In this document: piece by piece, positions 3,947 through 63,614 of the stretch
Numbering within the stretch: the stretch's first letter is position 1
Layout of the letters: every line of letters starts with the position of its first letter
Source: an uncultured virus (IMG/VR IMGVR_UViG_3300029705_006209)
Lineage: Duplodnaviria; Heunggongvirae; Uroviricota; Caudoviricetes
IMG/VR virus record: IMGVR_UViG_3300029705_006209
Reading direction: 5' to 3' (one strand)
Length of the DNA: 64,000 bases
Notes under the pieces: generated by a model
The model's input: the letters and a program-made list of their open reading frames with translations, nothing else
The model's database searches: none
Told to the model about the DNA's origin: nothing
Position numbers and translations under genes: made by a program

Positions 3947-4366
3947 TAAACTCAAAGTCTTTTGATTCGTTTGTTTGTACACCTGTGGGTGTACTTTCTA
4001 AGCCCCTCGAAATTTTGTCGCTTAACTATACGTTAAATTAATATTTACAGCATAGTTGTGTCCGTGATATACTGTGCTTGTATGAAGAATGCTTATTTAC
4101 ATTCTTCGCCCCTTTTGAGACAATACTTCTTGGTAATTACAGGAGATATTTATGGCAGACAGCGCAAAAAAATAAGGAGCTTCTGATAAAAGCATATCGA
4201 AACCGTCTTAAAGCAGAGATGATCAGAATTATTGATATGTCTGGTAATCGCTACAGGGAAAATTGCGAATTGGCCTGCAGATAAAACAATCAGCGAAGTC
4301 AAAAACAAGATCGAAGCAGCTGGTTACGCTCTTATCCCTTAATTTCCCGCCATCACCGGCGGATAA

Positions 4367-4443
<77 letters not shown>

Positions 4444-4866: not shown

Positions 4867-6135
4867 ATGGTATACGTGTTAAACAAGAACGGACAGCCTC
4901 TCATGCCTACTGTAAGGCATGGCAAGGTTCGTCGTTTACTGAAAGAGAATAAAGCAACAGTAATCAAGAGATGTCCGTTCACCATCAAGCTTGCTTACGA
5001 CACGCCTGACCTCGTTCAGAAAGTCAGCTTAGGCATAGACGCAGGTTCGAAGCATATTGGGCTGTCGGCAACTACCGAAACAAAAGAAATGTACGCTTCG
5101 GAGGTCGAGCTTCGCGATGACATAAGCAAGCTGCTGGAGGCAAGGCGTGAATATCGTCGCGCGAGAAGAAGCCGCAAAACAAGATATCGTAAGGCGCGTT
5201 TCGACAACAGAGTGCGGTCAAAACATAAAGGCTGGCTCGCACCGTCAGTCGAAGCGAAGATCGAGACGCACATTCGAGCAATCGAAGATGTCTGCAAAAT
5301 CCTTCCGGTCGATGACATCACCATCGAAGTCGCGGCATTCGACACGCAGAAAATGCAGGAACCCGAGGTAACTGGCGCCGAGTATCAGCAGGGCTCTTTA
5401 GCCGGATACACGATACGCGAGTACCTTGCGGAGAAGTTTGATCATAGATGCTGCTACTGCGGCAGGCCTCAGGGCAACGGCGTAAGGTTCGAAGTCGAAC
5501 ATCTCACTCCGAAGTCAAGAGGCGGCTCAAGCCGCGTCATCAATCTCGGCTGGTCATGCCACGAGTGCAACGAAGCAAAAGGTAATCTCACCTGCGAGGA
5601 ATTCGGTCATCCGGAAGTTCGCAAGGCTGCTGAAGCCGGCATGAAGCACGCCTCTCACATGAGTATCATGCGCTGGAAGTTGTACGAACGCCTCAAAGCG
5701 CTCTACGGCGACCGGCTTCATCTGACTTACGGTTCGACGACTTTATATCTTCGACATGAGGCAGGACTCGAAAAGAGCCACATAAACGATGCGCGCTGTA
5801 TTTCAGGCCATTCTGCTGCCGAGCCTGCCGAAGAATACTTCTACCGGAAGAAAGTGCGCCGCCACAACCGTCAGATACACAAGCTGACTATTCAGAAAGG
5901 CGGGATCCGAAAGCGCAACCAGGCACCTTACGAAGTTAAGGGCTTCAGGCTTTTCGACAAGGTAAAAGCTAAAGGCAGCATGTGGTACATCCACGGCAGA
6001 AGAGTAAAAGGCTCATTCGTACTCAAGACGCTAGGCGGAGAAAAGCTTGAGATCGCACCAAGTAAGATAACACTGATAGAGCACCAAAGTGCTTATGTAA
6101 CGGAGAGGAGGACGGCGCTCCTCCCCGCCCTGTAG
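4867..6135 (+). CDS. iscB: RNA-guided endonuclease IscB
   Basis: PLMP, GIDAG (RuvC-I), Arg-rich bridge helix RRARRSRKTRYR, EVAAFD, HNH (EHLTP..CHECN) and SHINDA. Confidence 0.95.
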   Translation: MVYVLNKNGQPLMPTVRHGKVRRLLKENKATVIKRCPFTIKLAYDTPDLVQKVSLGIDAGSKHIGLSATTETKEMYASEVELRDDISKLLEARREYRRARRSRKTRYRKARFDNRVRSKHKGWLAPSVEAKIETHIRAIEDVCKILPVDDITIEVAAFDTQKMQEPEVTGAEYQQGSLAGYTIREYLAEKFDHRCCYCGRPQGNGVRFEVEHLTPKSRGGSSRVINLGWSCHECNEAKGNLTCEEFGHPEVRKAAEAGMKHASHMSIMRWKLYERLKALYGDRLHLTYGSTTLYLRHEAGLEKSHINDARCISGHSAAEPAEEYFYRKKVRRHNRQIHKLTIQKGGIRKRNQAPYEVKGFRLFDKVKAKGSMWYIHGRRVKGSFVLKTLGGEKLEIAPSKITLIEHQSAYVTERRTALLPAL

Positions 6136-7463: not shown

Positions 7464-8480
7464 ATGCCTAAAAGTAAACAAGTAATATCCATTGTCCTTT
7501 CACTATTAATGGTCTTCCCGTTATTTACGCCAGTAAACGCATATGCGAAGGATTCCGAACCGTCTCTTCCGGACCCAACGGTTGTGGTCTATAAGCTGAC
7601 AAGCACAAAGGCAACCATCGACGTATACGGTGTAAAATCCCGTTCTGTCGCAGACCGGATCGTTATCGATATCTACGAAAACAACAGGTTCTGTAAATCT
7701 GTGCCTGCTGCCGTTCAGGAGGATTCCCTTACAGAAATTGTCGTGGACGGGCTGAAGCCAAAAACGGACTACACCGCAAAAACACACTTCGAGAAAGGAC
7801 GCCTTTCTTCTTCGGAAAACACACAGAACTTCAGAACTCTTGCGCCTCCGCCTTCGACTGCCTTTTCCGGCAAGGAAGTGCAGCGTCTTCTGAAAAATCT
7901 GAAAAGAAACAAGTCGTTTGTCTTCAATTTTGAAGAACCTCTCGCTCATGAAGAGGCATATAAATGGGAAACCACTGTCACTAAAAATCTGGTGCAGTAT
8001 GAAAAATACGACATAAGTTATAAACGCAGCGGGGACATCGTGACCGGGATCGAATACAAATATGACAAGGCAAAAGCAGCAAAAGCCAGTAAACTCACGC
8101 CTCGCTTCAACAGCATACTGAAGGGTGCGAAAAAGAAAAAAGGCACCCGGGCAAAAGTCATATACGTAAACTCACGGATGTGCAAGCTGGCTTCCTATGA
8201 TTACAAAACAATCAGAAACAAAGATGCAGGTCTGCCCTATTCAAGAGATGCATTCTTTGCCTACGGCTTCTTCGTGAAAAAGAAAGCTGTTTGCTCGGGT
8301 TATGCTCAGGCATTCAGCGCTATCATGTATCAGCTTGGCATACCATGCACGGACGTTTCGTCTGGCGGCCATATATGGAATAAGGTAAAGATAGGAAATA
8401 CCTGGTATCACGTTGATGTTACATGGAACGACTGTCAAAAGAACAAAACCAAATATTTACTGAAAAGGACGCACCCTTAA
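7464..8480 (+). CDS. secreted fibronectin-III plus transglutaminase-like domain protein
   Basis: Signal peptide, GLKPKTDY (FN3), and VCSGYA..HIWN..YHVDVTWND catalytic triad pattern. Confidence 0.8.
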   Translation: MPKSKQVISIVLSLLMVFPLFTPVNAYAKDSEPSLPDPTVVVYKLTSTKATIDVYGVKSRSVADRIVIDIYENNRFCKSVPAAVQEDSLTEIVVDGLKPKTDYTAKTHFEKGRLSSSENTQNFRTLAPPPSTAFSGKEVQRLLKNLKRNKSFVFNFEEPLAHEEAYKWETTVTKNLVQYEKYDISYKRSGDIVTGIEYKYDKAKAAKASKLTPRFNSILKGAKKKKGTRAKVIYVNSRMCKLASYDYKTIRNKDAGLPYSRDAFFAYGFFVKKKAVCSGYAQAFSAIMYQLGIPCTDVSSGGHIWNKVKIGNTWYHVDVTWNDCQKNKTKYLLKRTHP

Positions 8481-9173: not shown

Positions 9174-9195
9174 TATGAAGTAGAAAGGAATTCCT

Positions 9196-9687
9196 ATGGA
9201 TCTGCTAAAAGAAGTAAAAAAGTTCGCAAAAAAGCAACTAGAAGAAGACGACTATGAAGGCGTCTCCTTCGAATTCGAAGGACAGTCGATCATCAATCCG
9301 TGGGTCGAAAACACGGCAAGATTTGACCTTTCAACAGAAGATGCCATCAAGTTCTACGGCACAGCTAACGTGATGTTCTTCATAGAGGAAGCCGTCAAGT
9401 CCATCCACTCGGAAGGAATATCCTTCCCTGATGAAGGGATTCTGATTGCAGAGATTGAGGGTGAACTCAGCGACCATGCTCAGATATGGATGCACGGAAT
9501 CGACGATTTTGCCGCCTGCTATCCTGAAGGCGACAGCTCTATCCGCGGTTCGCTTGAAGATATAGCGTGCGATGTCGACAGCTTTCTCAGCTATCAGAAA
9601 AAACACTACTGCATCAACCGCATCAAAGCGATGAATGAGTTTGTTTTCGAAGAAATCTTCAGTGATCTGAAACAGATTCTCGGCTGA
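9196..9687 (+). CDS. hypothetical protein
   Basis: GAAAGGA RBS and upstream promoter; acidic ORF. Confidence 0.7.
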   Translation: MDLLKEVKKFAKKQLEEDDYEGVSFEFEGQSIINPWVENTARFDLSTEDAIKFYGTANVMFFIEEAVKSIHSEGISFPDEGILIAEIEGELSDHAQIWMHGIDDFAACYPEGDSSIRGSLEDIACDVDSFLSYQKKHYCINRIKAMNEFVFEEIFSDLKQILG

Positions 9688-14376: not shown

Positions 14377-14452
14377 GCTCTCATGGCTCAACAGGTAGAG
14401 CAGCTGATTCGTAATCAGCAGGTTGGCGGTTCGAGTCCGCCTGAGAGCTCCA
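14377..14452 (+). tRNA. tRNA-Thr (CGT)
   Basis: GCTCTCA/TGAGAGC acceptor stem, GCTGA-TTCGTAA-TCAGC anticodon arm, GGTTCGAGTCC T-arm, encoded CCA. Confidence 0.95.
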
Positions 14453-16137: not shown

Positions 16138-16173
16138 CAACCGTCATTCCCACTCAAGGAGGCGAGAAATAGT

Positions 16174-16527
16174 ATGCCAACAAAAGATATAAAATACTTA
16201 AAAAAAATATTAAAGCTGTACGGATTTCAGCCATTGGGGCCAGCAAGGTATTCTACCAGTCAGGGAATCTCTGTTGTAGAAGAAAACTTTCGTTTTGATC
16301 CGGCTTCACCCAATAAGATCGCATTTTCCCTTGCATACGAGGAGGATAATGCAACCAGCTTCGCGGAAAAGCTTGCCGCCTGCGCCTCTCGCAACAGAAA
16401 CTACATTGTTTATTACAAAATCGTTGATGAAGAGCGACAGGAAATGACCCGGCAGCTTTCAGAAGCATCTGAAGCTGTAACCGCAGCATGCGAAGGCCGC
16501 CCATTCCTTGTCCCCAACTCAAAATAG
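16174..16527 (+). CDS. hypothetical protein
   Basis: AAGGAGG RBS. Confidence 0.6.
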   Translation: MPTKDIKYLKKILKLYGFQPLGPARYSTSQGISVVEENFRFDPASPNKIAFSLAYEEDNATSFAEKLAACASRNRNYIVYYKIVDEERQEMTRQLSEASEAVTAACEGRPFLVPNSK

Positions 16528-17896: not shown

Positions 17897-18709
17897 GTGG
17901 GTACAGGCAGCATAACGCATACCTCTGCATATAGTTTTAACAGAGCACAGCTCAGGCTGATTGCCATGTCGACCATGCTCATAGACCACATAGGTCTGCA
18001 TCTGGTCGGGAACGAGATAGTTTTCCGCACTATCGGACGCATAGCCTTCCCGGTCTATGCATTCCTTCTTGCCGATGGATTTATGCATGTGAAAGATGAA
18101 AAAGCACATGTTGGCAGACGCTTTCTGATCATGCTCACTCTTACGGCTATCTCCGAATTTGCCTATGATTTTGCAAGGTCCGGGCTCGATACGACGGCCT
18201 ATATGGACAAGCAAAGCGTTATGGCAGCGCTTACACTTGGTTATGCGGGCATGTATATAACAGACAGGCTTCTTGCCGAGGACAGCGTTTTGCCCCGTGC
18301 TTTCGGGGGAGCATCTGCAGCTGCGATCAGTCTCCTGCTCTGCTTCGCCTCGAAACTTATAGCAGCGGACTACGGATTTGCGGGACCGTTTTTCGTAATT
18401 GCTTCCTATTGGTATATCAGAATATTCCATATCAGTGCTGAAAACGAAAATAAGAGGCTGCTGTTTCTATATGGCATAGCCGCCTGCTATCTTGCATATC
18501 GCGTAGGAACGGGCATAGACCAAAATCTGTGGCAGACCTCCCCTGTTATGTGCATAGCCTTTTACTCGGGATATCTGTATGCCCCACCTATAATAACCGC
18601 TTATAACGGCAAAAGAGGATCTCACACGCGGGCGTTTAAAATGCTGTATACAGCATTTTATCCTGCACATCTTCTTCTCGTCGGTCTTCTTAAATTTTGG
18701 TTAGCGTGA
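17897..18709 (+). CDS. traX: TraX family membrane protein (pilin acetyltransferase-like)
   Basis: [35 protein letters not shown] and FYPAHLL motifs; multiple TM segments. Confidence 0.8.
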
Positions 18710-18764
18710 GAAGAATCGGCGATGCCGAATGATATACTTTGCAAGACAGATACAGGAGGTAAAA

Positions 18765-19085
18765 ATGATCGTAACAACAACACCCGGAATCGAAGGAATG
18801 ACAATCATAGAGTACCACGGGATCGTATTCGGAGAAGTGATCACCGGGATCAATATGATGAAGGACATCGGCGCCAACTTCAGAAATGTATTCGGTGGCA
18901 GAGCCGGCGGATACGAAAAAGAACTCAAAAAAGCCCGCGAAGATGCACTTTACGAAATGATGGACCGCGCGGGACAACTTGGTGCAAATGCCGTTGTAGG
19001 TGTTGATATCGATTACGAAGTGCTCGGTGTGGAAAACAATATGCTCATGGTGACCGCAAGCGGCACCGCTGTATACGTACAGTAG
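18765..19085 (+). CDS. YbjQ/UPF0145 family protein
   Basis: [30 protein letters not shown]. Confidence 0.9.
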
Positions 19086-19102
19086 CTTTCAGGAGGAACA
19101 TC

Positions 19103-20230
19103 ATGCCGGAAAAGAAGATCCGGAACACTACGGGCAAGCCCCAGAATGTTCTGGCAAAAGAAAACTCGATCAATCAGAAAATCGCAAAAGAACTTCTTCC
19201 GGTTCTCCCCTCTTTTGTTGCTGAATATGACATGTACCTCGCCGGTGAAGGCAGATCAGTAAAGACCAGACACGCATATCTCAGCGATCTCGTTCACTTC
19301 TTCGAATATATGACGCAGGACACCGGGCTTTCCGATGCTGCGATTCCCCGGGATATAACGTTATCCGAAATGGAAAAACTCACAGGGCGTGATGTGAATG
19401 CATATCTTAATTATGTGATGCGCTATGAGTCCCCTGACGGGGAGTCGATCATTGAAAACAAGAATGATTCAAGGGCCAGAAAAAGAAGTTCCATCGTCGG
19501 TCTTCTTAAGTATCTATACAGACAGGACCTGATCGAAAAAGACATCACCGGAAAGATAATGACGATCTCTGTCAAAGACTCCTCCAGGGCGGTCAAGGCT
19601 CTTCAGGAAGATGAAGTCGCAGAGCTTCTCCATATAGTAACTACCGGAGAAGGACTGTCGGATCACCAGAAGTTCTACTGGGAAAAGACAAGATACAGGG
19701 ATACACTGATCATTATCCTTTTCGTTGTAACCGGGCTCAGAGTGTCCGAGCTTCAGCAGCTCAACATAAGCTCATTTAACCTGAAGAGGGAAACATTTCT
19801 CATTTACAGGAAACGCGGCAAGGAGTCTGTCATGCCAATGAACAGAATCATTATAGACGCTTTCAATGAGTACATGCGTCTTGACAGAGGCTCTTGCATG
19901 GATGTTGCTCCTGGTCATGAGGATGCATTGTTCCTTTGCCTGACAGCCGAAAGGAAAAGTAAGAACAATAATAGACCGGAGTACGGCAGAAAAAGACTAT
20001 CTACAGAGCAGATACGTGCCCTGGTTCACAAATACACAGCTATGGTCATTGGCGATAAAAGAGGCTACTCCCCTCACAAACTCAGAGCTACAGCTGCTAC
20101 AACAGCAATAAACCGTGGCCACGATATTAGCCGCGTTGCAAACTTGCTGGATCACGACAGCGTTCAGACCACAAAGAGATACATTAAGCAAACTGAGGCT
20201 GACAAAAAGCGTGTGATCGATGATTTTTAG
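19103..20230 (+). CDS. tyrosine recombinase (XerC/XerS-like)
   Basis: SAM-like N-terminal domain; TGLRVSE, PHKLR, LLDH and TKRY place the R, HxxR, H and Y catalytic residues. Confidence 0.9.
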   Translation: MPEKKIRNTTGKPQNVLAKENSINQKIAKELLPVLPSFVAEYDMYLAGEGRSVKTRHAYLSDLVHFFEYMTQDTGLSDAAIPRDITLSEMEKLTGRDVNAYLNYVMRYESPDGESIIENKNDSRARKRSSIVGLLKYLYRQDLIEKDITGKIMTISVKDSSRAVKALQEDEVAELLHIVTTGEGLSDHQKFYWEKTRYRDTLIIILFVVTGLRVSELQQLNISSFNLKRETFLIYRKRGKESVMPMNRIIIDAFNEYMRLDRGSCMDVAPGHEDALFLCLTAERKSKNNNRPEYGRKRLSTEQIRALVHKYTAMVIGDKRGYSPHKLRATAATTAINRGHDISRVANLLDHDSVQTTKRYIKQTEADKKRVIDDF

Positions 20231-20275
20231 TGCCCCTCGCAACGTGTGGTGCCCACATTCGCGACACACGCTTTC

Positions 20276-20424
20276 AATCTCTACTGTGTGTAGATTCAAT
20301 CAGTACGAAAATCGTACGAACGAGTCCAAAGGTAATAATAATCTCTACTAAGTGTAGATATTTCGGCTTCAAGGTCGTGTCAGATACAGTCCAAAGGTAA
20401 TAATAATCTCTACTAAGCGTAGAT
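20276..20424 (+). CRISPR. orphan mini-array with type V-A (Cas12a-type) repeats: one 20-nt handle plus two 36-nt repeats
   Basis: GTCCAAAGGTAATAATAATCTCTACTAAG(T/C)GTAGAT at 20324-20359 and 20389-20424, plus AATCTCTACTGTGTGTAGAT at 20276-20295. Spacers are 28 and 29 nt. The TCTAC/GTAGA stem is intact in all three units. Confidence 0.85.
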
Positions 20425-20463
20425 AGTAAGCGCTGCAATGCCCTGGTACCTGTCAGAAGGGAC

Positions 20464-20504
20464 AAAAAAAGTGGCTTTCCCTTGACAGGAAAGACCACCT
20501 TTTT
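20464..20504. terminator. bidirectional intrinsic terminator
   Basis: A7-GTGGCTTTCC-loop-GGAAAGACCAC-C-T5. Confidence 0.8.
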
Positions 20505-20680
20505 CTTTATTGGACACGGGAGAATTGTCCGCGCAAAAACCTCCCAACTTAAAAAAGTTTTCACCAAAGTGAAGACTTTGCAAAGCTGAGAGGTTTGTGT
20601 TGCCAATCAAGTCTTTGCAAAAATTAAAAAGAGGGCAAATTGCTCTCTTCTTAATACGCAAAACTTAATAAGCTGCATTC

Positions 20681-20709
20681 ATATTATCCTTTTTAGAGGG
20701 GAGTGTCAA
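20681..20709 (-). promoter_or_regulatory. sigma70 promoter pointing toward the CRISPR array
   Basis: TTGACA-17-TAATAT on the minus strand. Confidence 0.65.
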
Positions 20710-20722
20710 GGTTGGAATGCAG

Positions 20723-21265
20723 CTACAGCTCTGAATGGTTCTTCTCCTCGCAACTCGGGCAGCGTTCCGGAGCGTTTTCCCACATCTCCATGAGCGTGTC
20801 TGCCACTTCTCGCGAAACATACTCTATCGCTTCGTCAACTGTTTCCACCCCCATCGGGTTTGCATAAAACATCCTGAAAAAACTGTTGATAGAAGCGACA
20901 GGATACAGGTCTCCCTCCTTGTCTTTCGGAATGATTGTAATGCCGTCCTTGAGGTATGCGTCCCCCTCCTCTTCATTGTCGGCCTCCTCAATGCGAACAT
21001 CCGCATCTTCGTCAACAAGATCAGAAACATAGTCTACTAGAACACTCTCAAATTCCATGAAAAGCTGTTCCTTTTCTGTTTTGAAGGAATCCAGCTGTCT
21101 GCTGACTTCCTCTTTGGATGAGCCGAAGCAGAGTGGTGCAAAGCCACCCAGTCCCGTTTTGCAGAGATGAACATTGGATTCACACATCTCGGTTAATGTT
21201 TCGATCTGATACTGCCTGAGATCCTCGTTATAGCAGCCAATCCATACAGGTGTTTCTTTCTTCAT
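20723..21265 (-). CDS. hypothetical protein
   Basis: GAAAGGA RBS; ATGA overlap with the HTH gene. Confidence 0.7.
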   Translation of the reverse strand: MKKETPVWIGCYNEDLRQYQIETLTEMCESNVHLCKTGLGGFAPLCFGSSKEEVSRQLDSFKTEKEQLFMEFESVLVDYVSDLVDEDADVRIEEADNEEEGDAYLKDGITIIPKDKEGDLYPVASINSFFRMFYANPMGVETVDEAIEYVSREVADTLMEMWENAPERCPSCEEKNHSEL

Positions 21266-21567
21266 TTTCTGTTCCTTTCTTCACTTGGCCCGTTATTTTC
21301 TGGCGGGCAAGTGTCTTTCCATAACTCTTTTGTTTCAAGATACTCTATGACTGTTTCTCCCTCGAGAAAATACAGGTACGGCTTTTCCAGTGCGTCTGCA
21401 AGAAGTCGCAGCTTGGTCAAACTGTCAACATCCTTGCCGCATTCTATCCTGCTGATCTGTGGCTGGTCCCACTGAAGCAGAGCTCCGAGTTCCGTCTGCG
21501 TATAGCCCTTTTCTTTACGTGCAGCTCTGACTCTGTCCCCGATTTCCCTCTCATTGTTTGTATACAT
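21262..21567 (-). CDS. XRE-family HTH regulator
   Basis: IGDRVRAARKEKGYTQTELG..ISRIECG. Confidence 0.85.
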   Translation of the reverse strand: MYTNNEREIGDRVRAARKEKGYTQTELGALLQWDQPQISRIECGKDVDSLTKLRLLADALEKPYLYFLEGETVIEYLETKELWKDTCPPENNGPSEERNRK

Positions 21568-21684
21568 GTCTTCGTTCTGTTCTTTCTTTTTCTACATATA
21601 GGCAATATGCCAAGAAGTACTGACATAGCTTACAGTAAAAGTCTAAATTATACCCGATGCTAATTCTATGCAAAAATCTGCATA

Positions 21685-22728
21685 TTATCCGACAATCTCT
21701 CTGACCGTTGCAATTGGGAGCACATTGAGATGTGCGAGATTGTTTCTTGCTGTTGCCATAAGTTTAAGCCTTTCGTATTCATCGTGCGGCACACGGAACA
21801 TCCCGCTGTAAGTCATGAACAGAAGCGCGCCAAGCTCAACATCGCTCGCGGTTACGTAATCGTCCCCGAGAGGATTCGAAAGCGGAAGCTGCTTCGTTAT
21901 CAGCTCCTCGTATTTCTCCACAAAAGAGCATCTGTATTGTTCAAGATACGGGAATATGCACTTAAGCTGAGCTTCCCAGACTTTGCGCTTCAGCGCCTCT
22001 TCATCATCGTCGCCCTTCCCGTAATGCTTCTTCGCAAAAGATACCGGATCTTCAAGAAACTCCCTGTAAATGTATATGGCAGTTTCCGCCTGCTCGGCAT
22101 TCCCACCGGTTATGCCTGACGCAAGCTCGGCAAGATAAGTCTTTATGATGCTCGGCTCGCATATGCCCGCTGCCTGTATTGCACAGTAGGCGTAGGTATC
22201 AAACGGCGATGAATAGTCCCTGTAGTCTATTACGCGAATGCCTTTTGTCACCTTCGGCTTTTCGTCTGCCTGAACAGTAAGCATAAATACCGCCGGAGCG
22301 ATGTTTCTGGAAACGAAGGATGCATATTCGGAAACAAACGACGTCCAGCCGGAGAGCTCTTCAGCGTTTTCGCTTTCCGTTCTCACGATAAAGCCTCTGC
22401 CGTGCATCACGGATGAAGAGGCTTCAGCAAGGAATCTGGATGCTGAGTAGCCCGGCTTTGGCCTGAATGAAGCCCTGAGCTCACGCCTGCAGTAGGTGTT
22501 AAGAAAGTAGTCTGAGACCTGTCCGGCAATATCGCCGAGAATGACTGTCTCCTGGCCTCCCAGTTCGGTTTCTACGCGATTTCTGAGTATTTCGAAGAAC
22601 TCTTCCTCAAACGGGATTTCTTTCGGCATAACCAAAATACAGCTCTTCTGAGCGGCCGCAGATTCCGCGGCCGCCCTTATGAACCTTGAAGGACCGGATA
22701 CTTCGGTCCACCATGCATTATCTTTCAT
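21685..22728 (-). CDS. hypothetical partner of the large ATPase
   Basis: Starts 13 nt downstream of the ATPase gene; C-terminal ARNNLAH (Rx4H, HEPN-like). Confidence 0.7.
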   Translation of the reverse strand: MKDNAWWTEVSGPSRFIRAAAESAAAQKSCILVMPKEIPFEEEFFEILRNRVETELGGQETVILGDIAGQVSDYFLNTYCRRELRASFRPKPGYSASRFLAEASSSVMHGRGFIVRTESENAEELSGWTSFVSEYASFVSRNIAPAVFMLTVQADEKPKVTKGIRVIDYRDYSSPFDTYAYCAIQAAGICEPSIIKTYLAELASGITGGNAEQAETAIYIYREFLEDPVSFAKKHYGKGDDDEEALKRKVWEAQLKCIFPYLEQYRCSFVEKYEELITKQLPLSNPLGDDYVTASDVELGALLFMTYSGMFRVPHDEYERLKLMATARNNLAHLNVLPIATVREIVG

Positions 22729-22741
22729 AACGCTCTATCTC

Positions 22742-25700
22742 CTATTCTGAGAACGAGAGGAGTTTTTCGTCCACCTCGTCCGATGTTCCCATCATTGTGA
22801 AGAAATTGTATCTTGAGAACAGGTATCTGTTCTCTGCTGTTACTCTGATGACGTTCAGCTCGCAGAGCTCGGTCATAAGAGCGTCCACCTGCTCCTTTGT
22901 CATACCGGAGATGCGCTTTGTATTCAGTTCCTTTGCGATCCTGAGAATGTCAGCGGCGGAATATCCGCCCTCTCTGTCATAATTTCTGTACAGGTACGCC
23001 AGGATAAGCGCGAGGATGTAGTAGTAGTCATCGTCACCTATGGTGAGCGTGATCATGAACTTCTCGCGGATCTGATTTCTGAAGTCAGACTCGGCAAGAA
23101 CTCTCTTGATGAGTTTCTCCTCGATCACGTACGGAGGTGTTGCCGCCTCATCGTAGTCCCCGTTGTTCTTTTTCAGCGCTTCGATAAGCTTAGCGCAGTA
23201 AAGCTGAACAAGGCCCGGGAAGCGGTTGGCCGTTGCGAGGATCATCGGAACGAGGTCCGAATCGTCCTCCGGAAATCTGAAGCCGAGGTAAAAAAGAGGC
23301 TGTTCGAGCAGCATTCTTGCTTCCTGAGCGCTGAATGGCTTTACAGTGAGGCTCTCAAGATGCGGAAGCACGCTGTTTCCGCTGGATGCAGCCTTGTTGA
23401 AGCGGATGACGTTTCTGAGTCCCGCTACAACGAACTTGAACCTGCCCGCATCCACGTTCATCTGGATGTCCTTAAGCGCATTGAACGGGCTGTAGCCTAC
23501 CTCTTCGCAGCTTTCGAGGAACCTGTCTGCCTCGTCAAGCATCAGAAGCAGATACCCGATCTTTTTCGACCCGTTAAGGGTGTTTCTGACTGCGCGCGCG
23601 ATCGCATCCCAGTTCGTCTCGTCAGAGACTGGCGCCTCGAGCACCTTCTCGTCATAGAGGGTCTGGGCGACCTTTCTTGCCGTATCCTTGTAATCAAGGT
23701 CTTTTATGTCGATAAGAACAGCCTTGTTCTTATCCGACTCACCGTTTATGTCCGTCTTGGCTTTTCTGAGAAGCGCCGACTTACCCAGCTGGCGGCCGCC
23801 GTATACTATGTTGACTCCCGCCGGGTCCTTTATCTTTTCGAGCTCGTCCTTCCTTCCGATGAACATCTCAGGAGCCATTACCTTTGAGCTCTCGTAGATA
23901 TAAGGCTGGAAGTAAGCAAACGGCATGACCGTCTCCATCAGCATACGTCCGATGTATGTCTCCGAGTAGTTATGGATCAGGTACATATAGAGCACTCTGT
24001 CGATCACAGCGAAGACTCGTGATGAGCCCTCTTCCTTGATCTTGCGTGCAAGACGCCTTCTCTCCGTCTCCGTGAGCGGATGGTCAAGGAATGCGATCGT
24101 GTGCCTGCCCTTGCCGTACTCGTTCATCTTTGCGATAAGCGCGTCCGCATTATGTGCTCCTGAAAGCCAGATAACGCGGAACCCTTCCCTTGCGCCCATA
24201 GAGCCGAAGGCGTATATCGGGTGGCCGTATGTCTTTTCGTCCTCATGAAGAGGCTTTTTGAGTCTTATGTTGAAGGTGTTGCCCGCAGTATCCGCAGGTG
24301 TGATCCTCTCGATATCCATTCCAAGAGCCGTAAGCATCACCTTGAGGCTCTCCGGAGTGACTGCCCTGCCCGGATTAGGCCAGCTGCTTTTGAGCGCGAG
24401 AGCGCCCTTCATATCTTTGGTTGAAAGCCCTTTTAGGTCGTTGGTCTTGACGCGGCTCGAAAGGGCCTGCCCGCTCGTGCCGGACATCTTATAGTAATAT
24501 GAATATTTTGACTGGAAGTCAGCGAGATAGTCCTCTTCGAACAGCTCCGTATCTGCCGGGATGTCTCCCGAAAGAAGGTTGTTGATCATATCCTCTGCTA
24601 CGAGGTAGTTCTGTCTCTCGAGGATCATCTGGTTGATCTTGCATATGTAATCGCTGTGATCGCGCTCGAGCGTATGGTCATGCTTGAGAAGGTCTGAAAG
24701 TTCGCGGAGAATGGACGCTCCGCGGCTTCCGGCATCGTGCTTTATCTGAGCTCTCAGTTCTTCGAGAAGGCTCTTGTAGAATCCGTAATTCCATGTTTCT
24801 TCAGCCCAGTTGTACCATTTGTCCGCCAGGCGGAGGATCCTGTCCTTTTTGTCCTCGGTGTCGTCCGTGTCGAGCTGTCCGTAGCTCTGCGCAAGCTCTA
24901 TGTCGCTTACAAAGTCCCTCTGTATGAATTCGAGCTGACCCGCTGCATATTTCTGTGCTTCAGCCATCGTGCTCAGTATTTCCGGGTCCTTCTTTCCTGA
25001 CTTCCTGATGTAGTCCGCAATGAGGCAGGCGGAGCCGTAATTGTCATCGCAGTAGTCACCCAGGTTCTCTTCCATCGTGCCGTTCTCATCAGCAGCGTGC
25101 TTTTCTATGAGAGCCATCATGTCCATTCCGTCTACTCCCGTTACGGCGCACTCCATATCAGGGAAGTAATCCTCGCCGAGAATGACGTAGTTCTTTTTCA
25201 GGAAATCTGCGTAGAAGTATTTCTGCACCGCAGGATCGAACGAGCCGTCCAGCTTGCTTCTGATCTCCCTGATCGTGCGGATAAGAACTACAAGGCCTGC
25301 TTTCGTCGAAACGTCTGATGTTTCAAGCTGCGCTTTCGAAGCTTCTGCTGCGGCATCGGCAAGGGATATCAGTCTGTCTCTGACTGCTGCATACGCTTCG
25401 TGCCCTTTATCTTTGTCATCACCGAGCGCTTCGTGGATCTCGATCCAGTTGCAGACCGCTGTAAGGGATTTGTATATATGTGACCTGAGGTTGCTTCTGA
25501 GGCTGCCCATAAGATCGGATGACTTCATCCTGAGCGCCACCTGCTCAAGAGCCTTGTCCCATTCTCTGTCAATGAAATCCTCTACTTTTCTCGGATCGAT
25601 GTTGTCAGCTGAGACAGACATTTCGTCCTTGATAAAGGAGCTTTCCATAAAGTCCTTAGCCAGTCCAACATAGCCGGTATCGTCCACCGATGCAGCCTTA

Positions 25701-28045
25701 ACATAGACGCCGAAATCTCCTTCCTTCGAGAAGATGTTGCGCCATGTTGCCTCGTAACGTCTGTTTATGATTTTGGAACGTGCTCTTTTCTGCCTTTCAA
25801 AGTCGTTCTCATAGCAGGATGCAGCTTCCGACTTGAGTGCTGTAAGATCCTTTTCAAGCGTTACCCTGTCATGGCTCCTGTAATCAGCATATCTGTCTAC
25901 CGGGAAACCGGTCTTTGATCTGAACGTTCTGAGATCATAGATAAGGTCGTTCAGAGCCTGGTTGTCTGAAAGCGCCGGATTGCCCTTGATCGAGTCGTGT
26001 ATCTGCTGAAGGCTGTAGTCGTAGCGCGACTGCCCTGCGAAGAAAAGTCTCAGTACGGATGAAGCCTGATAGTAATATTCGGACTCTCTGTCAAAATCCG
26101 TGAATGCGCTGAACAGGTTGTCTGATGTGTATGTGCAGTGGGCCGCCGGATCATTGACGGCATATGCCAGTTTGCTGTAGATGCTTTCCGTATCCGGGTA
26201 TTTTACCGATGCGGCTGCGGCATACGCGACAGCACAGTGCAGTTTCCCGTCTGCAGCAAATTTATCAACTGCAATTCCTATGCTCTCCTCAAGAGAGCCT
26301 GCAGCATAATCTTTTGCCGGAGTTGCCTTTGCGGCAGATGGCCTTTCCACCTTTTCAGGGGCCTCTGCTTTGGCTTTTGCTTTCACCGCCTTTGGTTTAG
26401 CCGTGCTTTTCCCTTTTACGGGCTTATCTGTCACCTTTGGTGCTTCTTTCTTTTCCGGCTCTTCGTCCTTGCCCGATCCCTTAGGATCAGTCAGCGATGC
26501 ATCTTCCCCCAATACATGCAGCTGGATGTCTGTCGTTTCAGAAATGACCAGTCCCTCCAGCATTTCCAGAACTACATTTGAAAAATCAACAGCATTTTCT
26601 TTTGTCAGTCCAAAGACATGGAGCTCGTCATACACCACCGGAGGCGTGGCGATGCTTTCGATTAGTGGGAGGAATGACTCCGTGTCCTCCGCATTATCAC
26701 ACAGACAGCCCGCAAAGAGCCTGTGCTTACCGTCACCGCATGCAGCAGAAGAAACAAAACCGCCTCCGTATATGTATCCCGTGACATCGGAATTTTCAGA
26801 GATATACTCGATCGACATGTTCTTCATAAGAATGTTAAGGTAAATCTTCGGATCATCATTCATGACCGGGATCGATATTCTTTTGTTGTGTGTACACTTT
26901 ATATAGTCACACGCATTTCTGCTTGAGAAAAGATCTGCACCTTTTTCCGTTACGCTGTAAAGCGTTGGGTAACCTTCGGCGGTTGCCTTTTGGATGTAGC
27001 CCTTTCTGAACAGAAGGTCGATGCACTCACTATAGCGGGATTCATCTATGCATGCTCTGAGTTTTTCGTTCGGTGTTTCGCGTAATGCTCCGCCGAAAGC
27101 AAGATCTCTCAGCGTCATGATGACGTCCACCCCGATAGGGCTGGATTTTATCATCTCTTTGAATTTCTTGACGCTGAAAGATTTTTTCGTCTGTGCCTCG
27201 GCGAATTCCCTTTCAACCTTTATGTCGCTCGTTTCGACCGGAGTATAGCCCGTTACCGCAAGGATGTCCGCATACGGACTCACGCCGGCTTCATCCTCCG
27301 GATCGTCTTCAAGCAATTCCGGAAAATCTACTCTTTCCTCTGGGAAAATTTCCGGTTCAGCATCAGACACAGCTTCTGTCTGTTCATCTTCTTCCTGCTG
27401 CTCGGCTTCTTCCGTTTCGCTTTCGGGCTCTGCTTCCTCGGATATTTCTTCCTTATCAGGCGCAACAGGCGAATCTTCTACTGTATACTCACCTGTAAAT
27501 GCAAGCGACAGGATCGACTCATCAAATTCATTCGCTATCCTGAGCATATACCCGGCTTTTTCTGCCGGCTTGCAGGAAAGAAGGTTTTTAAGATCCACAT
27601 ATTTCTGAAGAGAAGCCTCGCACTCTTCTGCGCTGAGACTTTCTATGTCCACAGCCAGAAGGTCTTTTTTAAGCTTCTCAAAAGTAGCAGCAATCGCTTT
27701 GTCATGAATATTAAGTCTTAAGATAAAATCCTTTGCCTCGATGTACTTGGTTTTATCGAGCATGCGTTCGATCCGGCACACCTCTTCATGAAAGTCATCG
27801 AACGTTTCAGGCAGTTCGTCGTGCCCGAATTCCCTATATGAAGCTTCACACTGCTTTCTCAGCGCCTTGACCGATGTGATCTTGTTTGAAGCTTCCGTAC
27901 ATTCCTCCGTTGTGAGGATGTATCCTTCACCCAGATTTTCTACGATCTGCTGCAGAGTATCGCAAAGGTCTTTTGACTCCTCGTGAAACCGCGAGACCCT
28001 GCTTTGCAGTTTTTCCAATAGTTCCAGTTTGTTCTTACTGCTCAT
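22742..28045 (-). CDS. very large (1767 aa) protein with C-terminal STAND-like P-loop ATPase
   Basis: FIGRKDEL..YGGRQLGKS (Walker A), LLMLDEAD (Walker B), FPGLVQ (GxP-like); long helical N-terminal region. Confidence 0.8.
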   Translation of the reverse strand: MSSKNKLELLEKLQSRVSRFHEESKDLCDTLQQIVENLGEGYILTTEECTEASNKITSVKALRKQCEASYREFGHDELPETFDDFHEEVCRIERMLDKTKYIEAKDFILRLNIHDKAIAATFEKLKKDLLAVDIESLSAEECEASLQKYVDLKNLLSCKPAEKAGYMLRIANEFDESILSLAFTGEYTVEDSPVAPDKEEISEEAEPESETEEAEQQEEDEQTEAVSDAEPEIFPEERVDFPELLEDDPEDEAGVSPYADILAVTGYTPVETSDIKVEREFAEAQTKKSFSVKKFKEMIKSSPIGVDVIMTLRDLAFGGALRETPNEKLRACIDESRYSECIDLLFRKGYIQKATAEGYPTLYSVTEKGADLFSSRNACDYIKCTHNKRISIPVMNDDPKIYLNILMKNMSIEYISENSDVTGYIYGGGFVSSAACGDGKHRLFAGCLCDNAEDTESFLPLIESIATPPVVYDELHVFGLTKENAVDFSNVVLEMLEGLVISETTDIQLHVLGEDASLTDPKGSGKDEEPEKKEAPKVTDKPVKGKSTAKPKAVKAKAKAEAPEKVERPSAAKATPAKDYAAGSLEESIGIAVDKFAADGKLHCAVAYAAAASVKYPDTESIYSKLAYAVNDPAAHCTYTSDNLFSAFTDFDRESEYYYQASSVLRLFFAGQSRYDYSLQQIHDSIKGNPALSDNQALNDLIYDLRTFRSKTGFPVDRYADYRSHDRVTLEKDLTALKSEAASCYENDFERQKRARSKIINRRYEATWRNIFSKEGDFGVYVKAASVDDTGYVGLAKDFMESSFIKDEMSVSADNIDPRKVEDFIDREWDKALEQVALRMKSSDLMGSLRSNLRSHIYKSLTAVCNWIEIHEALGDDKDKGHEAYAAVRDRLISLADAAAEASKAQLETSDVSTKAGLVVLIRTIREIRSKLDGSFDPAVQKYFYADFLKKNYVILGEDYFPDMECAVTGVDGMDMMALIEKHAADENGTMEENLGDYCDDNYGSACLIADYIRKSGKKDPEILSTMAEAQKYAAGQLEFIQRDFVSDIELAQSYGQLDTDDTEDKKDRILRLADKWYNWAEETWNYGFYKSLLEELRAQIKHDAGSRGASILRELSDLLKHDHTLERDHSDYICKINQMILERQNYLVAEDMINNLLSGDIPADTELFEEDYLADFQSKYSYYYKMSGTSGQALSSRVKTNDLKGLSTKDMKGALALKSSWPNPGRAVTPESLKVMLTALGMDIERITPADTAGNTFNIRLKKPLHEDEKTYGHPIYAFGSMGAREGFRVIWLSGAHNADALIAKMNEYGKGRHTIAFLDHPLTETERRRLARKIKEEGSSRVFAVIDRVLYMYLIHNYSETYIGRMLMETVMPFAYFQPYIYESSKVMAPEMFIGRKDELEKIKDPAGVNIVYGGRQLGKSALLRKAKTDINGESDKNKAVLIDIKDLDYKDTARKVAQTLYDEKVLEAPVSDETNWDAIARAVRNTLNGSKKIGYLLLMLDEADRFLESCEEVGYSPFNALKDIQMNVDAGRFKFVVAGLRNVIRFNKAASSGNSVLPHLESLTVKPFSAQEARMLLEQPLFYLGFRFPEDDSDLVPMILATANRFPGLVQLYCAKLIEALKKNNGDYDEAATPPYVIEEKLIKRVLAESDFRNQIREKFMITLTIGDDDYYYILALILAYLYRNYDREGGYSAADILRIAKELNTKRISGMTKEQVDALMTELCELNVIRVTAENRYLFSRYNFFTMMGTSDEVDEKLLSFSE

Positions 28046-30841: not shown

Positions 30842-32083
30842 TCATATCACTTTTGCAAGTATGTTGATCGCAGCATTCACATCTCGCGAATGCATAGTGC
30901 CGCAGACAGGGCATTCCCATTCACCAACGCCGAGAGGTATGTGCTCGTCTCCTGTCATCACATGACCGCAGGCAGAACATGTCTGTGTAGTGTACTGCGG
31001 CGGTACCTTGACATATACCTTGCCGTACATCTCGGCTTTGATGGCGATGAGCTGCATGAAGCGGCCCCATGAAACATCAGCAATAGCGAATGCAAGGCAA
31101 TGGTTCCCGAGAAGATTCGTCACCTTAAGGTCTTCCGAAACTATGAGGTCTTGGTTTTCGACCAGATGTTTCGCCTGTACATTAAGGTAGTCCTCTCTTG
31201 AACGGGCGACCTTGCGTTCAAGTCTTGCAGTTTTTAATCGCTGCTTCTGATAGTTTGAAGATCTGTAGACGCTTCGGCCTTCAGCCTCCGCACGGCACTT
31301 TCTGCGGGACAGCTTCTTCTGAGCTTTCGCGACATCGCTTTTGGCTTTTGCCGCAAAACACGGGTTGTCTACGACGTTGCCGTCCGAGTCGGAATACAGG
31401 TTCGTGAGATTGAGGTCGATCGCGGCAACGGCTCCGGTCTTCGGCATGGCATCGAAGAACGGCACGTCGCTGTGCAGCTGAAGGCTGCAGTAATAGTCAC
31501 CGCAGTTGTCGCGATATACTTTTATGCTGCCTATACGTGTGCCGGAGGTATGGTCCTCAAGGATACTGCGCATCTTATTCGAGCACTGGAATCTCACACT
31601 GCCGAGGACAGGCAGCTGTATATGCTTTCTGTCGATCAGTCTGACGTTCCCGTCGCTCAGATCGTTCGCGCCTTTCGGATAATGGGCGTTCGTCTGGTAG
31701 CTTTGCGAATAGCTTTTCTTTTTGAAAACGGGAACTCCGAATGAAGGGTTCCTGCGGAAGTTGTTCCACGCCGCACGGTACGCCCGGAACGCATTGTCAA
31801 AGGCGCATGAGTCGACTTCCTTCGAGGCAAGCCACGGCGCGGTCTGTTTGAATACGGTCTTGGACGAAAGTACATCGTTTACATATGACAGTCTGTCGGC
31901 TACCGGTTTACAATAGACCGTTACTTTTGACAGCAGATATTTCTCTCTGTTCAGCGTGACGAGTTTGTTGTACACAAAGCGGCGGACTCCGTCATTCACA
32001 GCTATGATGTGCTGCTGATGTTCGTCAGGACGGAGTCTCAATGTCATGCCTATATGATACTGCATCTCGTTACATGGTCTCAT
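30842..32083 (-). CDS. tnpB: RNA-guided endonuclease TnpB
   Basis: N-terminal HTH (RFVYN), PVFKKK, RuvC D/E/D (AIDLNL, SEDL, RDVNAAINI), Zn finger CSACG..CPVCG. Confidence 0.93.
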   Translation of the reverse strand: MRPCNEMQYHIGMTLRLRPDEHQQHIIAVNDGVRRFVYNKLVTLNREKYLLSKVTVYCKPVADRLSYVNDVLSSKTVFKQTAPWLASKEVDSCAFDNAFRAYRAAWNNFRRNPSFGVPVFKKKSYSQSYQTNAHYPKGANDLSDGNVRLIDRKHIQLPVLGSVRFQCSNKMRSILEDHTSGTRIGSIKVYRDNCGDYYCSLQLHSDVPFFDAMPKTGAVAAIDLNLTNLYSDSDGNVVDNPCFAAKAKSDVAKAQKKLSRRKCRAEAEGRSVYRSSNYQKQRLKTARLERKVARSREDYLNVQAKHLVENQDLIVSEDLKVTNLLGNHCLAFAIADVSWGRFMQLIAIKAEMYGKVYVKVPPQYTTQTCSACGHVMTGDEHIPLGVGEWECPVCGTMHSRDVNAAINILAKVI

Positions 32084-32262
32084 CAGTACGCCTTTGCCTG
32101 GTGTTCTATTTATTTGCGTATCGTCTCTTCGGAAATGTGGCCTATAGTCTCTACATAGTAGGAATGGTTCCATAGCTGGCCTTTCCACAGGTCGTAAAGG
32201 CGCATTCCTCTCGGCAATGGAATTACCGAGGATCCTGCGCGTCTATCCTGAAGACAATGTAC

Positions 32263-40674: not shown

Positions 40675-41943
40675 CTAAAGGGCGGGTAGGAGCGCCGTTC
40701 TCCTTTCTGTTATATAAGCACTTTGATGCCCTATTAGCGTTATCTTACTTGGTGCGATTTCAAGCTTTTCACCTTCAAGTGTTTTGAGTACGAATGAGCC
40801 TTTTACTCTTCTGCCGTGGATGTACCACATGCTGCCTTTAGCTTTTACCTTGTCGAAAAGCCTGAATCCCTTAACTTCGTAAGGTGCCTGGTTGCGCTTT
40901 CGGATCCCGCCTTTCTGAATAGTCAGCTTGTGTATCTGACGGTTGTGGCGGCGCACTTTCTTCCGGTAGAAGTATTCTTCGGCAGGCTCGGCAGCAGAAT
41001 GGCCTGAAATACAGCGCGCATCGTTTATGTGGCTCTTTTCGAGTCCTGCCTCATGTCGAAGATATAAAGTCGTCGATCCGTAAGTCAGATGAAGCCGTTC
41101 GCCGTAGATGGCTTTGAGGCGTTCGTACAGCGTCCAGCGCATGATGCTCATGTGAGCGGCATGTTTCATGCCGGCTTCAGCTTTTTTGCGTACTTCCGGA
41201 TGACCGAATTCCTCACAGGTGAGATTACCTTTTGCTTCGTTGCACTCGTGGCATGACCAGCCGAGGTTCGTGATGCGGTTCGATCCGCCTCTCGATTTTG
41301 GAGTAAAGTGTTCGACTTCGAAGCGGGCACCGTTACCTTGAGGCTTGCCGCAGTAGCAGCATTTGTGGTCGAACTTCTCCGCAAGGTATTCGCGAATCGT
41401 ATAACCCATGAGCGTGCCCTGCTGGTACTCAATGCCTGTTATCTCGGGATCCTGCATTTTCTGCGTGTCGAACGATGCGACTTCAACAGTGATATCTTTG
41501 ATCGGAAGTATGTTGCATACATTCTCGATAATGCGGACGTGCGTTCCGATCTTCGCCTCGACTGACGGTGCAAGCCATCCTTTGTGCTTTGACTTTACTC
41601 TGTTTTCGAAACGAGCTTTGCGATACCTTGTCTTGCGGTTTCTTCTCGAGCTGCGGTATTCACGCCTTGCTTCGAGGAGCTTGCTTATGTCATCGCGAAG
41701 CTCGACCTCCGAAGCGTACAATTCTTTCGTTTCGGTTGTAGCTGACAGACCGATATGTTTTGATCCGGCATCTACGCCGAGCGTGACTTCCTGAACGATG
41801 TCAGGCGTGTCGCAAGTTAGTTTGATGGTGAACGGACATCTTTTTACTACAATTGCTTTGTTTTCTTTCAGTAAACGACGAACCTTGCCATGCCTTACAG
41901 TAGGCATGAGAGGATGTCCGTCTTTGCTTATCACGTATACCAT
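40675..41943 (-). CDS. iscB: RNA-guided endonuclease IscB
   Basis: PLMP, GVDAG, bridge helix, HNH and SHINDA motifs; same length as copy 1. Confidence 0.95.
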   Translation of the reverse strand: MVYVISKDGHPLMPTVRHGKVRRLLKENKAIVVKRCPFTIKLTCDTPDIVQEVTLGVDAGSKHIGLSATTETKELYASEVELRDDISKLLEARREYRSSRRNRKTRYRKARFENRVKSKHKGWLAPSVEAKIGTHVRIIENVCNILPIKDITVEVASFDTQKMQDPEITGIEYQQGTLMGYTIREYLAEKFDHKCCYCGKPQGNGARFEVEHFTPKSRGGSNRITNLGWSCHECNEAKGNLTCEEFGHPEVRKKAEAGMKHAAHMSIMRWTLYERLKAIYGERLHLTYGSTTLYLRHEAGLEKSHINDARCISGHSAAEPAEEYFYRKKVRRHNRQIHKLTIQKGGIRKRNQAPYEVKGFRLFDKVKAKGSMWYIHGRRVKGSFVLKTLEGEKLEIAPSKITLIGHQSAYITERRTALLPAL

Positions 41944-63376: not shown

Positions 63377-63383
63377 ATCAGCC

Positions 63384-63614
63384 TTAAGCCTCCTTTGTGA
63401 GGTCGATGATGTCGAACCCGAAGTCCATAGCATTAAGAAGCTTGATATACGTTCCGATTGTCGGATTACTTTTCCCGTTTTCGATGTAGCCTATCTGCTT
63501 ACGGCTTATATCTGCAAGATCACTGAGAGCGCGTATAGAGAGGCCTCTCTCTTCTCGGCATTCGCGAAGGCTCGCTCCGGCAATAATTGCCTCCAAATTT
63601 TTCTTTTCGATCAT
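63384..63614 (-). CDS. XRE-family HTH regulator
   Basis: LRECREERGLSIRALS..IENGKSNPT. Confidence 0.85.
   Translation of the reverse strand: MIEKKNLEAIIAGASLRECREERGLSIRALSDLADISRKQIGYIENGKSNPTIGTYIKLLNAMDFGFDIIDLTKEA

Follow-up and report, generated by a model that had tools for sequence, protein, structure and literature searches.

Structure of the array

The subject of this analysis is a short CRISPR array of Cas12a type in 64,000 nucleotides (nt) of DNA from an uncultured virus of the Caudoviricetes (IMG/VR record IMGVR_UViG_3300029705_006209); this whole stretch is referred to as the window. The array occupies positions 20276-20504 and lies on the plus strand behind a tyrosine recombinase gene. 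It consists of a bare handle, two full repeats, two spacers, a trailing unique segment and a terminator (Table 1). The initial annotation described it as an orphan mini-array, built as a cassette for exactly three guides. The anatomy that it gave is borne out by reading of the sequence and by a repeat finder, which places three units in tandem at a spacing of 64-65 nt. The distance of 45 nt to the recombinase stop at 20230 is also correct, and there is indeed no AT-rich leader.

Table 1. Coordinates of the array, of other features of the window and of the cas12a gene on the related contig.
Feature	Position	Strand	Description and basis
Handle 1 (unit 1)	20276-20295	+	Bare 20-nt Cas12a 5' handle, AATC-TCTAC-TGTGT-GTAGA-T = AATCTCTACTGTGTGTAGAT; sequence and repeat finder (family D2)
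Spacer 1	20296-20323	+	28 nt; internal GTACGA/TCGTAC hairpin in RNA fold
Repeat 2	20324-20359	+	Full 36 nt, GTCCAAAGGTAATAATAATCTCTACTAAGTGTAGAT; consists of GTCCAAAGGTAATAAT and handle, loop TAAGT (family D1)
Spacer 2	20360-20388	+	29 nt; polymorphic between runs
Repeat 3	20389-20424	+	Full 36 nt, loop TAAGC
Trailing unique segment	20425-20463	+	"Third guide" or trailer, after the last repeat; sequence
Bidirectional intrinsic terminator	20464-20508	.	A-tract, stem of 10 base pairs (bp) with one bulge (20471-20480 / 20488-20498), 7-nt loop, T-tract
Stop-to-handle gap	20231-20275	+	45 nt; neither AT-rich nor repeat-like
Tyrosine recombinase gene	19103-20230	+	375 amino acids (aa); Pfam Phage_integrase (9.7e-25) and SAM-like N domain; PHROG integrase (5.8e-28)
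Flanking module	20505-20653	.	Two CTTTGCAAAG-type palindromic direct repeats (20572-20584, 20609-20621; family D6); second terminator-like hairpin at ~20626-20650
Type IA topoisomerase	61088-63433		Pfam
RRXRR-HNH endonuclease gene, first	4867-6135	+	Pfam
RRXRR-HNH endonuclease gene, second	40675-41943	-	Pfam
TnpB (OrfB_IS605 / Cas12f-like TNB)	30842-32188	-	Pfam
tRNA-Pro(GGG)	4367-4443		
tRNA-Thr(CGT)	14377-14452		
Full-length cas12a of the relative	related contig 146280-149930 (L037:1501-5151)	-	TIGR04330 equivalog, 1089 bits; ~50 kilobases (kb) from the relative's array

Repeats 2 and 3 differ at one of 36 nt, a base of the loop. Unit 1, as read from the sequence, is without the 16-nt 5' part of the repeat, and the 16 nt upstream of it are unlike that part; its likeness to the handle begins exactly at the Cas12a cut site in precursor CRISPR RNA (pre-crRNA). 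Variation among the handles is confined to the loop (TGTGT, TAAGT, TAAGC), as had been claimed, and the stem is intact in all three. The 64 kb contain three copies of the motif TCTAC-N5-GTAGA, all of them in the array, against 0.03 copies expected; three or more copies were seen in none of 100 shuffles. All three unique segments are single-copy within the window at up to three mismatches. Arrays of type V-A have repeats of about 36 nt with a TCTAC/loop/GTAGA hairpin and a U 5' of the spacer, and unique spacers of typical length; the two full repeats, the handle-only unit and the spacers of 28 and 29 nt agree with this, and the locus is, as first proposed, a true mini-array of V-A type carried by a mobile element. 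A search of positions 19000-22000 against Rfam gave nothing below E 0.3.

Canonical V-A arrays, such as that of LbCas12a, share the 36-nt repeat ending in a TCTAC-loop-GTAGAT hairpin, the spacers of 28-29 nt and a predicted transcription from repeat into spacer. The loop TAAGT and the last 16 nt of repeat 2 presumably match the LbCas12a repeat. The window array differs from the canonical form in having no adjacent cas12a, no adaptation module (cas4-cas1-cas2), no leader and no intact first repeat, which is reduced to the handle. Its handle also has C for U at position -16, and the array is placed like a 3' untranslated region (UTR) behind an unrelated gene.

No cas12a was found in the window by tblastn with a Cas12a of the cognate type (best E 5.3), and no Cas family, including those of the adaptation genes cas4, cas1 and cas2, is present among the 51 window open reading frames (ORFs) scanned, a set that does not include all small ORFs. 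A 1222-aa ORF at 48459-52127 was suspected to encode Cas12a; it has no TIGR04330 match and was rejected.

A truncated first repeat, a missing leader and the absence of cas genes from 64 kb are also features of a decaying remnant, that is, of a V-A array left over after loss or rearrangement, kept by chance and without function. This explanation is improbable. The stems are intact in three of three handles, with all differences in the loop; the truncation falls exactly at the processing site; and the two full repeats are identical except for a single base.

Variation across metagenomes

The element occurs widely; a 4-kb stretch around the array is present in 24 run rows from 17 studies, or in 20 rows from 13 studies after removal of four possible-source rows. 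Identical or near-identical pieces come from runs of animal faeces, manure and sheep gut. Four runs were compared in detail, and three of these cover spacer 2. Faecal run X8 has a contig identical to the window over 20246-20528. Manure run X10 has a contig over 20097-20345 with one difference, and hence at most one in spacer 1; a second, 640-nt contig of this run (20330-20969) has 14 substitutions, all within 20360-20386 in spacer 2, and three gaps, the places of which are not listed. The repeats, the trailing segment and the downstream DNA are without substitutions in X10, the sole variant run that covers them. A 92-nt contig of run X24 (20332-20425) has a third sequence between repeats 2 and 3. 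Spacer 2 is found as three alleles in the three runs covering it.

A maintained array fits better than a relic, because spacer 2 turns over at fixed flanks; the identity of these flanks across samples of several studies likewise speaks against a decaying remnant. In the variant run X10 the third segment keeps its sequence although spacer 2 is replaced, as an ordinary trailer would, and the proposed design for exactly three guides is not supported. Standing behind the last handle, the trailing segment would nonetheless be taken up as a guide. New spacers would enter only at a full repeat, and spacer 1, which stands behind a handle-only unit, would thus be frozen; recombination between repeats would remove older middle spacers.

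A plasmid-like relative and the distribution of the handle

The paired handle of this variant is rare, being found at two loci in a scan of one genome per species for 185,579 species. One is in a Methanoplasma metagenome-assembled genome (MAG); the other is on a contig of 162,836 nt from the MAG of an uncultured member of the Clostridiales. This MAG is the only one of the 401 genomes of its family to have the handle. Seventeen of 62 window ORFs match this contig. Identity is 51% for a 1767-aa protein, 50% for its 347-aa neighbour, 65% for the recombinase (the homologue has 371 aa) and 72% for the topoisomerase. Judged by these shared genes, the 163-kb contig is a mosaic relative of the window's element. 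Its families, which were assigned from 68 of 136 ORFs of at least 100 aa, include two type IV secretion system coupling proteins, a TraG P-loop ATPase, Rep_3, ParA/ParB, a single-stranded DNA-binding protein, a sortase with an adhesin, a 1754-aa cell-wall hydrolase, a type I restriction-modification system and GmrSD. By its gene content the contig looks like a conjugative plasmid.

The relative's array is made up of four repeats that have the window's handle (…TAATCTCTACTA[G/T]GTGTAGAT) but a different 5' repeat part. It is leaderless too, and begins ~10 nt after the stop of a co-oriented topoisomerase gene. The relative's recombinase homologue is followed by only ~65 nt with a terminator; there is no array behind it, and the relative's array lies ~9 kb away. 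The place of the array is therefore not conserved, and its link to the recombinase is incidental; the idea that recombinase homologues keep a downstream array fails for this homologue. The changed position is, together with an insertion sequence (IS) and degenerate solitary units in the relative, a point in favour of a decaying remnant. The inserted sequence is an IS630-like element (DDE_3 transposase and helix-turn-helix (HTH) ORFs; L035 8743-9935, equal to ~94,553-95,745 of the related contig), which lies in the loop of the relative's second repeat with TACTAG on both sides.

The solitary units of the relative are of two kinds. Two handle-only units with loops of 6 nt and 14 nt lie near the contig end on the minus strand (~161,700-161,800; L042 ~7700-7800), behind a promoter-like TTGTCA-17-TAAGAT; no seed target was found for the first of them. 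A handle with its loop expanded by ~20 nt lies upstream of the topoisomerase gene (91,974-92,014, plus strand).

A scan of IMG/VR for the handle gave 34 loci. None is an array of this type, and by their flanks most single matches look coding or due to chance. Some IMG/VR contigs (L001 621-640, L014, L006, L031/L032) have single AATCTCTACT-N4-GTAGAT handles in AT-rich contexts that look non-coding, some of them just 3' of a promoter-like TTGAC; these single viral handles may be solitary repeat units aimed at a Cas12a with this handle. A scan of JGI metagenomes gave 15 loci, none of which is a relative of the window. Thirteen are of Methanoplasma type by their repeats, including some handle-only mini-arrays, and two are short contigs with other repeats. 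Methanoplasma-type Cas12a loci (L057, plus strand, 9174-9320; L058, minus strand, 16150-16382; L059, minus strand, 4166-4277; L036 20-97) contain small mini-arrays that are handle-only or have short spacers, and these spacers are all variants of one sequence, CAAGCAnGAnnnCGnGnGTT. By coordinate arithmetic, one such mini-array is on the strand opposite to cas12a, ~1 kb upstream of that gene. The Methanoplasma-type mini-arrays look like a family of related regulatory guides.

A Cas12a clade with serine in the RuvC-I motif

A cognate Cas12a exists for the handle variant, both on the related contig (Table 1) and at Methanoplasma-type loci. No other array lies within ~±12 kb of the relative's cas12a, and a search of the whole MAG with the handle pattern returned the array's own matches only. 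Cas1, Cas2 and Cas4 were not found in this MAG, where positive controls were detected. Among solved structures, those of ReChb (959 bits) and LbCas12a (822 bits) are nearest to the relative's Cas12a. In its RuvC-I motif this protein has GVSRGE, compared with GIDRGE in LbCas12a; it thus has serine at D832 (counted along the native-length chain), and E925 is kept. D832A is the standard engineered mutation that makes LbCas12a nuclease-dead.

A search of 5.8 billion protein clusters with this Cas12a gave 89 matches, of which the best 40 were aligned. Serine is present in 11 of 11 sequences formed by the query and its ten nearest representatives (50-98% identical); among the same best 40 of 89, the next 30 of 30 have aspartate. 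Within the serine clade, S832, E925 and D1163 are invariant, as are K768 and K785, and H759 is nearly so. H759, K768 and K785 are the pre-crRNA RNase residues of LbCas12a; the clade residues are their presumed equivalents. The clade is most naturally read, from its sequences, as a conserved Cas12a lineage that would still make its own guides and cut DNA poorly or not at all. Its members have a shorter segment before RuvC-III. One of them, the relative's Cas12a, occurs on 57 contigs, the longest of 172,729 nt. No Cas12a of the clade was found in IMG/VR. Phrase searches of the open-access literature for a Cas12a that is inactive by nature turned up engineered or inhibited enzymes only. In its passage on RuvC inactivation, a 2025 classification paper names V-C, V-M, V-O, V-P and possibly Cas12b3; V-A is not listed there.

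The distance between cas12a and the array on the relative bears on the word orphan. The annotated absence of cas12a from 64 kb stands; orphan status is unproven and is not inferable from a 64-kb view, because in the relative ~50 kb of one contig separate cas12a from the array. Clearly, the window's element extends beyond 64 kb; in public assemblies, window proteins are found on contigs as long as 91,379 and 127,773 nt. Among the listed members of the ten clade Cas12a clusters, none has 91,379 or 127,773 nt as its longest contig, in a comparison for which only the longest contig per protein is reported. This is a weak hint that cas12a is absent near the array on the larger contigs.

Transcription signals and RNA folding

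The intrinsic terminator described at the end of the array is present as a hairpin, which the terminator scan called on the minus strand only. On the plus strand, the terminator calls for a longer stem, in which one A is bulged out, and then C and TTTTT; this is our reading of the sequence, and the RNA fold agrees. In the fold of 20231-20515, the terminator hairpin is present (plus strand, centroid fold), and handles 2 and 3 each form a 5-bp hairpin. A transcript would most likely arise by read-through from the recombinase gene, because there is no leader and no promoter of the array's own was found. The 92-nt contig of run X24, the library type of which was guessed as RNA, is unable to show transcription.

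Spacer targets and regulatory alternatives

It had been suggested that the spacers might match phage or plasmid sequences next to a protospacer adjacent motif (PAM); nothing beyond chance was found. There is no match in 72,556 plasmid records and no exact 20-mer match in IMG/VR. A 24-nt match to a Rhizobium phage, among 50,697 phage records, has an E of 0.5 and was rejected as chance. The spacers of the window and of the relative have no match of 13 nt or more in either of the two sequences. A 9-mer, AAAATCGTA, is common to window spacer 1 and one of the relative's spacers; it is considered a chance likeness, as the offsets differ and the PAM-proximal end is not involved.

RNA anti-CRISPRs are relevant here. 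The crRNA-like RNAs of the array could soak up the Cas12a of a rival or of the host (Racr), or redirect it to its own promoter (a V-A Cracr array), and so shield the element from the Cas12a of competitors such as the related plasmid. As published, a V-A Cracr consists of a repeat-like 20-nt handle, then a spacer-like segment and a rho-independent terminator; it occurs in phages and 16 plasmids, sometimes as arrays, and it redirects Cas12a to the effector's own promoter via ~10 PAM-proximal matches (10.1101/2024.10.29.618823). Such units are stackable into arrays, and the Cracr arrays counted in that preprint are of types I-C, I-E and I-F. The window array shares with V-A Cracr and Racr a 20-nt handle-only unit, a terminator-closed unit, a mobile carrier and stacked units (10.1101/2024.10.29.618823; Camara-Wilpert et al. 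2023, PMC10651486). Units 1 and 3 are shaped like Cracr: unit 3 has the full layout of handle, invariant spacer-like segment and terminator, and unit 1 is a bare handle. The window contains no effector, an HTH gene and a small unknown ORF adjoin the array, and the relative also has handle-only units, one set of them behind its own promoter-like site.

Cracr action is described as needing at least 9-10 PAM-proximal matches to a cas12a promoter or a host CreR spacer, beside a TTTV PAM. Within 700 nt upstream of the relative's cas12a, the sole cognate gene available, no seed reaches 7 nt; this is one promoter only, and the true partner of the window array may differ. Neither the window nor the 163-kb relative contains a PAM-flanked seed of at least 9 nt. 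Repeats 2 and 3 are of full length, with spacers of 28-29 nt as adaptation makes them, and one spacer is polymorphic. The array is also unlike a Racr in the strict sense, a solitary repeat mimic with no functional guide part, in having three tandem units and full repeats. The 180-aa neighbour has no AcrVA-like match (best E 0.13). An anti-CRISPR role is unlikely.

A self-regulatory role like that of CreR or CreA, in which one or more units would guide Cas12a by partial matches to repress element or host genes, is very unlikely. Standalone repeat-like units are common and conserved, being reported for ~56% of V-A loci (Shmakov et al., PMC10120712), and spacer 1 and the trailing segment stay the same where spacer 2 varies. 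Against this, the 64-kb window and the 163-kb relative contain no PAM-flanked partial match, and the relative's MAG has no spacer-length match outside arrays.

Interpretation and relation to known systems

The best explanation of the locus is an adaptation-incompetent type V-A array carried by a large, plasmid-like element of Clostridia of the ruminant or animal gut. The fuller reading that we prefer, tentatively and in the knowledge that it could well be wrong, is that it is a working leaderless guide cassette which is read through from the recombinase gene, is cut by a Cas12a encoded elsewhere and probably serves binding and not cutting. The transcript would run from the recombinase gene and end at the hairpin at 20471-20508. 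Cas12a would cut 5' of each AAUCUCUAC handle, and the guides so released would bear spacer 1, the polymorphic spacer 2 and the trailing segment. The gene of the effector could lie on the element outside the window, on another plasmid in the same cell or in the host, and the guides would probably direct binding to rival mobile elements, as silencing or as a roadblock, without cutting.

A guide cassette is favoured over a relic or a pure decoy because of the full repeats, the array-like spacer lengths and the spacer turnover. Binding is more probable than cutting because the only bacterial genome found with the handle variant pairs it with a Cas12a of the serine clade and has no cas1, cas2 or cas4. 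A mixed cassette is possible, given that the handle-only first unit and the terminator-closed last unit are like crRNA-like regulatory or anti-CRISPR RNAs.

Several points weigh against the guide cassette read for binding. No target was found for any spacer anywhere searched. The link to an effector comes from a single relative, and the genes shared with it are just 50-78% identical to those of the window. The AATCTCTAC handle variant, which the initial annotation put forward as a possible determinant of effector specificity, does not identify the serine clade, because it occurs both with that clade and with the canonical GIDRGE Cas12a of the archaeal Methanoplasma-type loci. Loss of cutting by the aspartate-to-serine change is argued by analogy with the engineered D832A mutant. 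Such arrays may be dispensable, given the different array position in the relative and its IS-split repeat. The promoter scan upstream of the array gave no convincing site, and none in 20231-20275; the minimum free energy fold sequesters handle 1, as TGTGTG pairs with CACACG in the upstream 45-nt gap; and among the runs carrying the stretch no RNA run is listed, and no evidence of expression or processing was found. Replacement of a middle spacer with no local adaptation genes is a process without a demonstrated mechanism.

Short arrays on mobile elements are known from other systems. Plasmids carry orphan arrays relatively often, and these have been proposed either to use Cas proteins supplied in trans or to be products of decay (Pinilla-Redondo et al. 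2022, PMC9071438); the latter suggestion, that they are remnants, would suit a decayed array in the window, as would the lack of spacer targets. The window array resembles these orphan arrays and viral mini-arrays in being short, on a mobile element and with no cas gene nearby, and in the proposed use of a trans effector for competition between elements (PMC9071438, PMC11656645). Viral mini-arrays are described as mostly targeting relatives of the carrier (Koonin and Makarova 2024, PMC11656645), whereas no such target was found for the window spacers. Type IV and V-M plasmid systems act by binding, according to the same source. Type IV and V-M (Cas12m) systems have in common with the present case a conjugative-plasmid carrier, no adaptation module, a presumed part in plasmid competition and, for the relative's effector, a changed RuvC site (PMC11656645). 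They differ in that the relative's effector, in which one catalytic residue is replaced, is a Cas12a of full size (TIGR04330) and not a miniature Cas12m or a multi-subunit complex, and its binding-only action is putative.

A broader proposal is speculative and on the whole unlikely. It holds that the window's element supplies guides, and no effector, to a natural "dCas12a" plasmid lineage that would be the V-A counterpart of types IV and V-M. Rival conjugative elements of the ruminant gut would silence each other, some of them carrying the RNA half only, and handle-only units and arrays embedded in 3' UTRs would be characteristic of this adaptation-free system.

Orphan or mini-arrays on mobile elements and RNA anti-CRISPRs with a Cas12a handle are already known, and the window array taken alone is a new example and not a new principle. 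What is added is a conserved Cas12a clade with serine for aspartate on conjugative plasmids with no adaptation genes; guide cassettes directly behind unrelated genes, like natural 3'-UTR arrays; and a middle spacer that is exchanged between samples with no adaptation genes in view. If the link to this clade is true, it would provide a natural full-size DNA-binding Cas12a together with its guide format, and a testable case of plasmids that share or steal an RNA-guided silencer.

Other features of the window

In gene content the window resembles a section of a large mobile replicon. By Pfam it encodes a DNA polymerase III alpha subunit, GyrB- and GyrA-like subunits, a DnaB_2/DnaD-like protein, TraX, an ISL3 transposase and many unknown genes, in addition to those in Table 1. 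A BLAST search of 18000-23000 against phage and plasmid databases found no relative; a YbjQ-like gene alone matched, at ~69% identity. A two-gene module is conserved between the window (21685-28045, minus strand) and the related contig (L035 11876-18395, plus strand); it encodes proteins of 1767/1823 aa and 347 aa that are ~50% identical. Pfam, NCBIfam and PHROGs assign no family to this module, and the larger protein has a weak AAA_22 match only.

The recombinase gene is co-oriented with the array, which lies at the junction of a plus-strand gene block with a minus-strand block; the cumulative GC skew turns at the same place. The skew peak and orientation flip at the array and recombinase (~18000-22000) resemble a replication terminus with an Xer-like resolvase site, and the recombinase may serve dimer resolution instead of integration. 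Downstream of the array, two contigs of run X24 (depths 96 and 55; library type guessed) match only 20505-20639 and 20606-20653 and are unlike the window leftward of 20505. The stretch 20505-20653 may be a portable small module or a small RNA.

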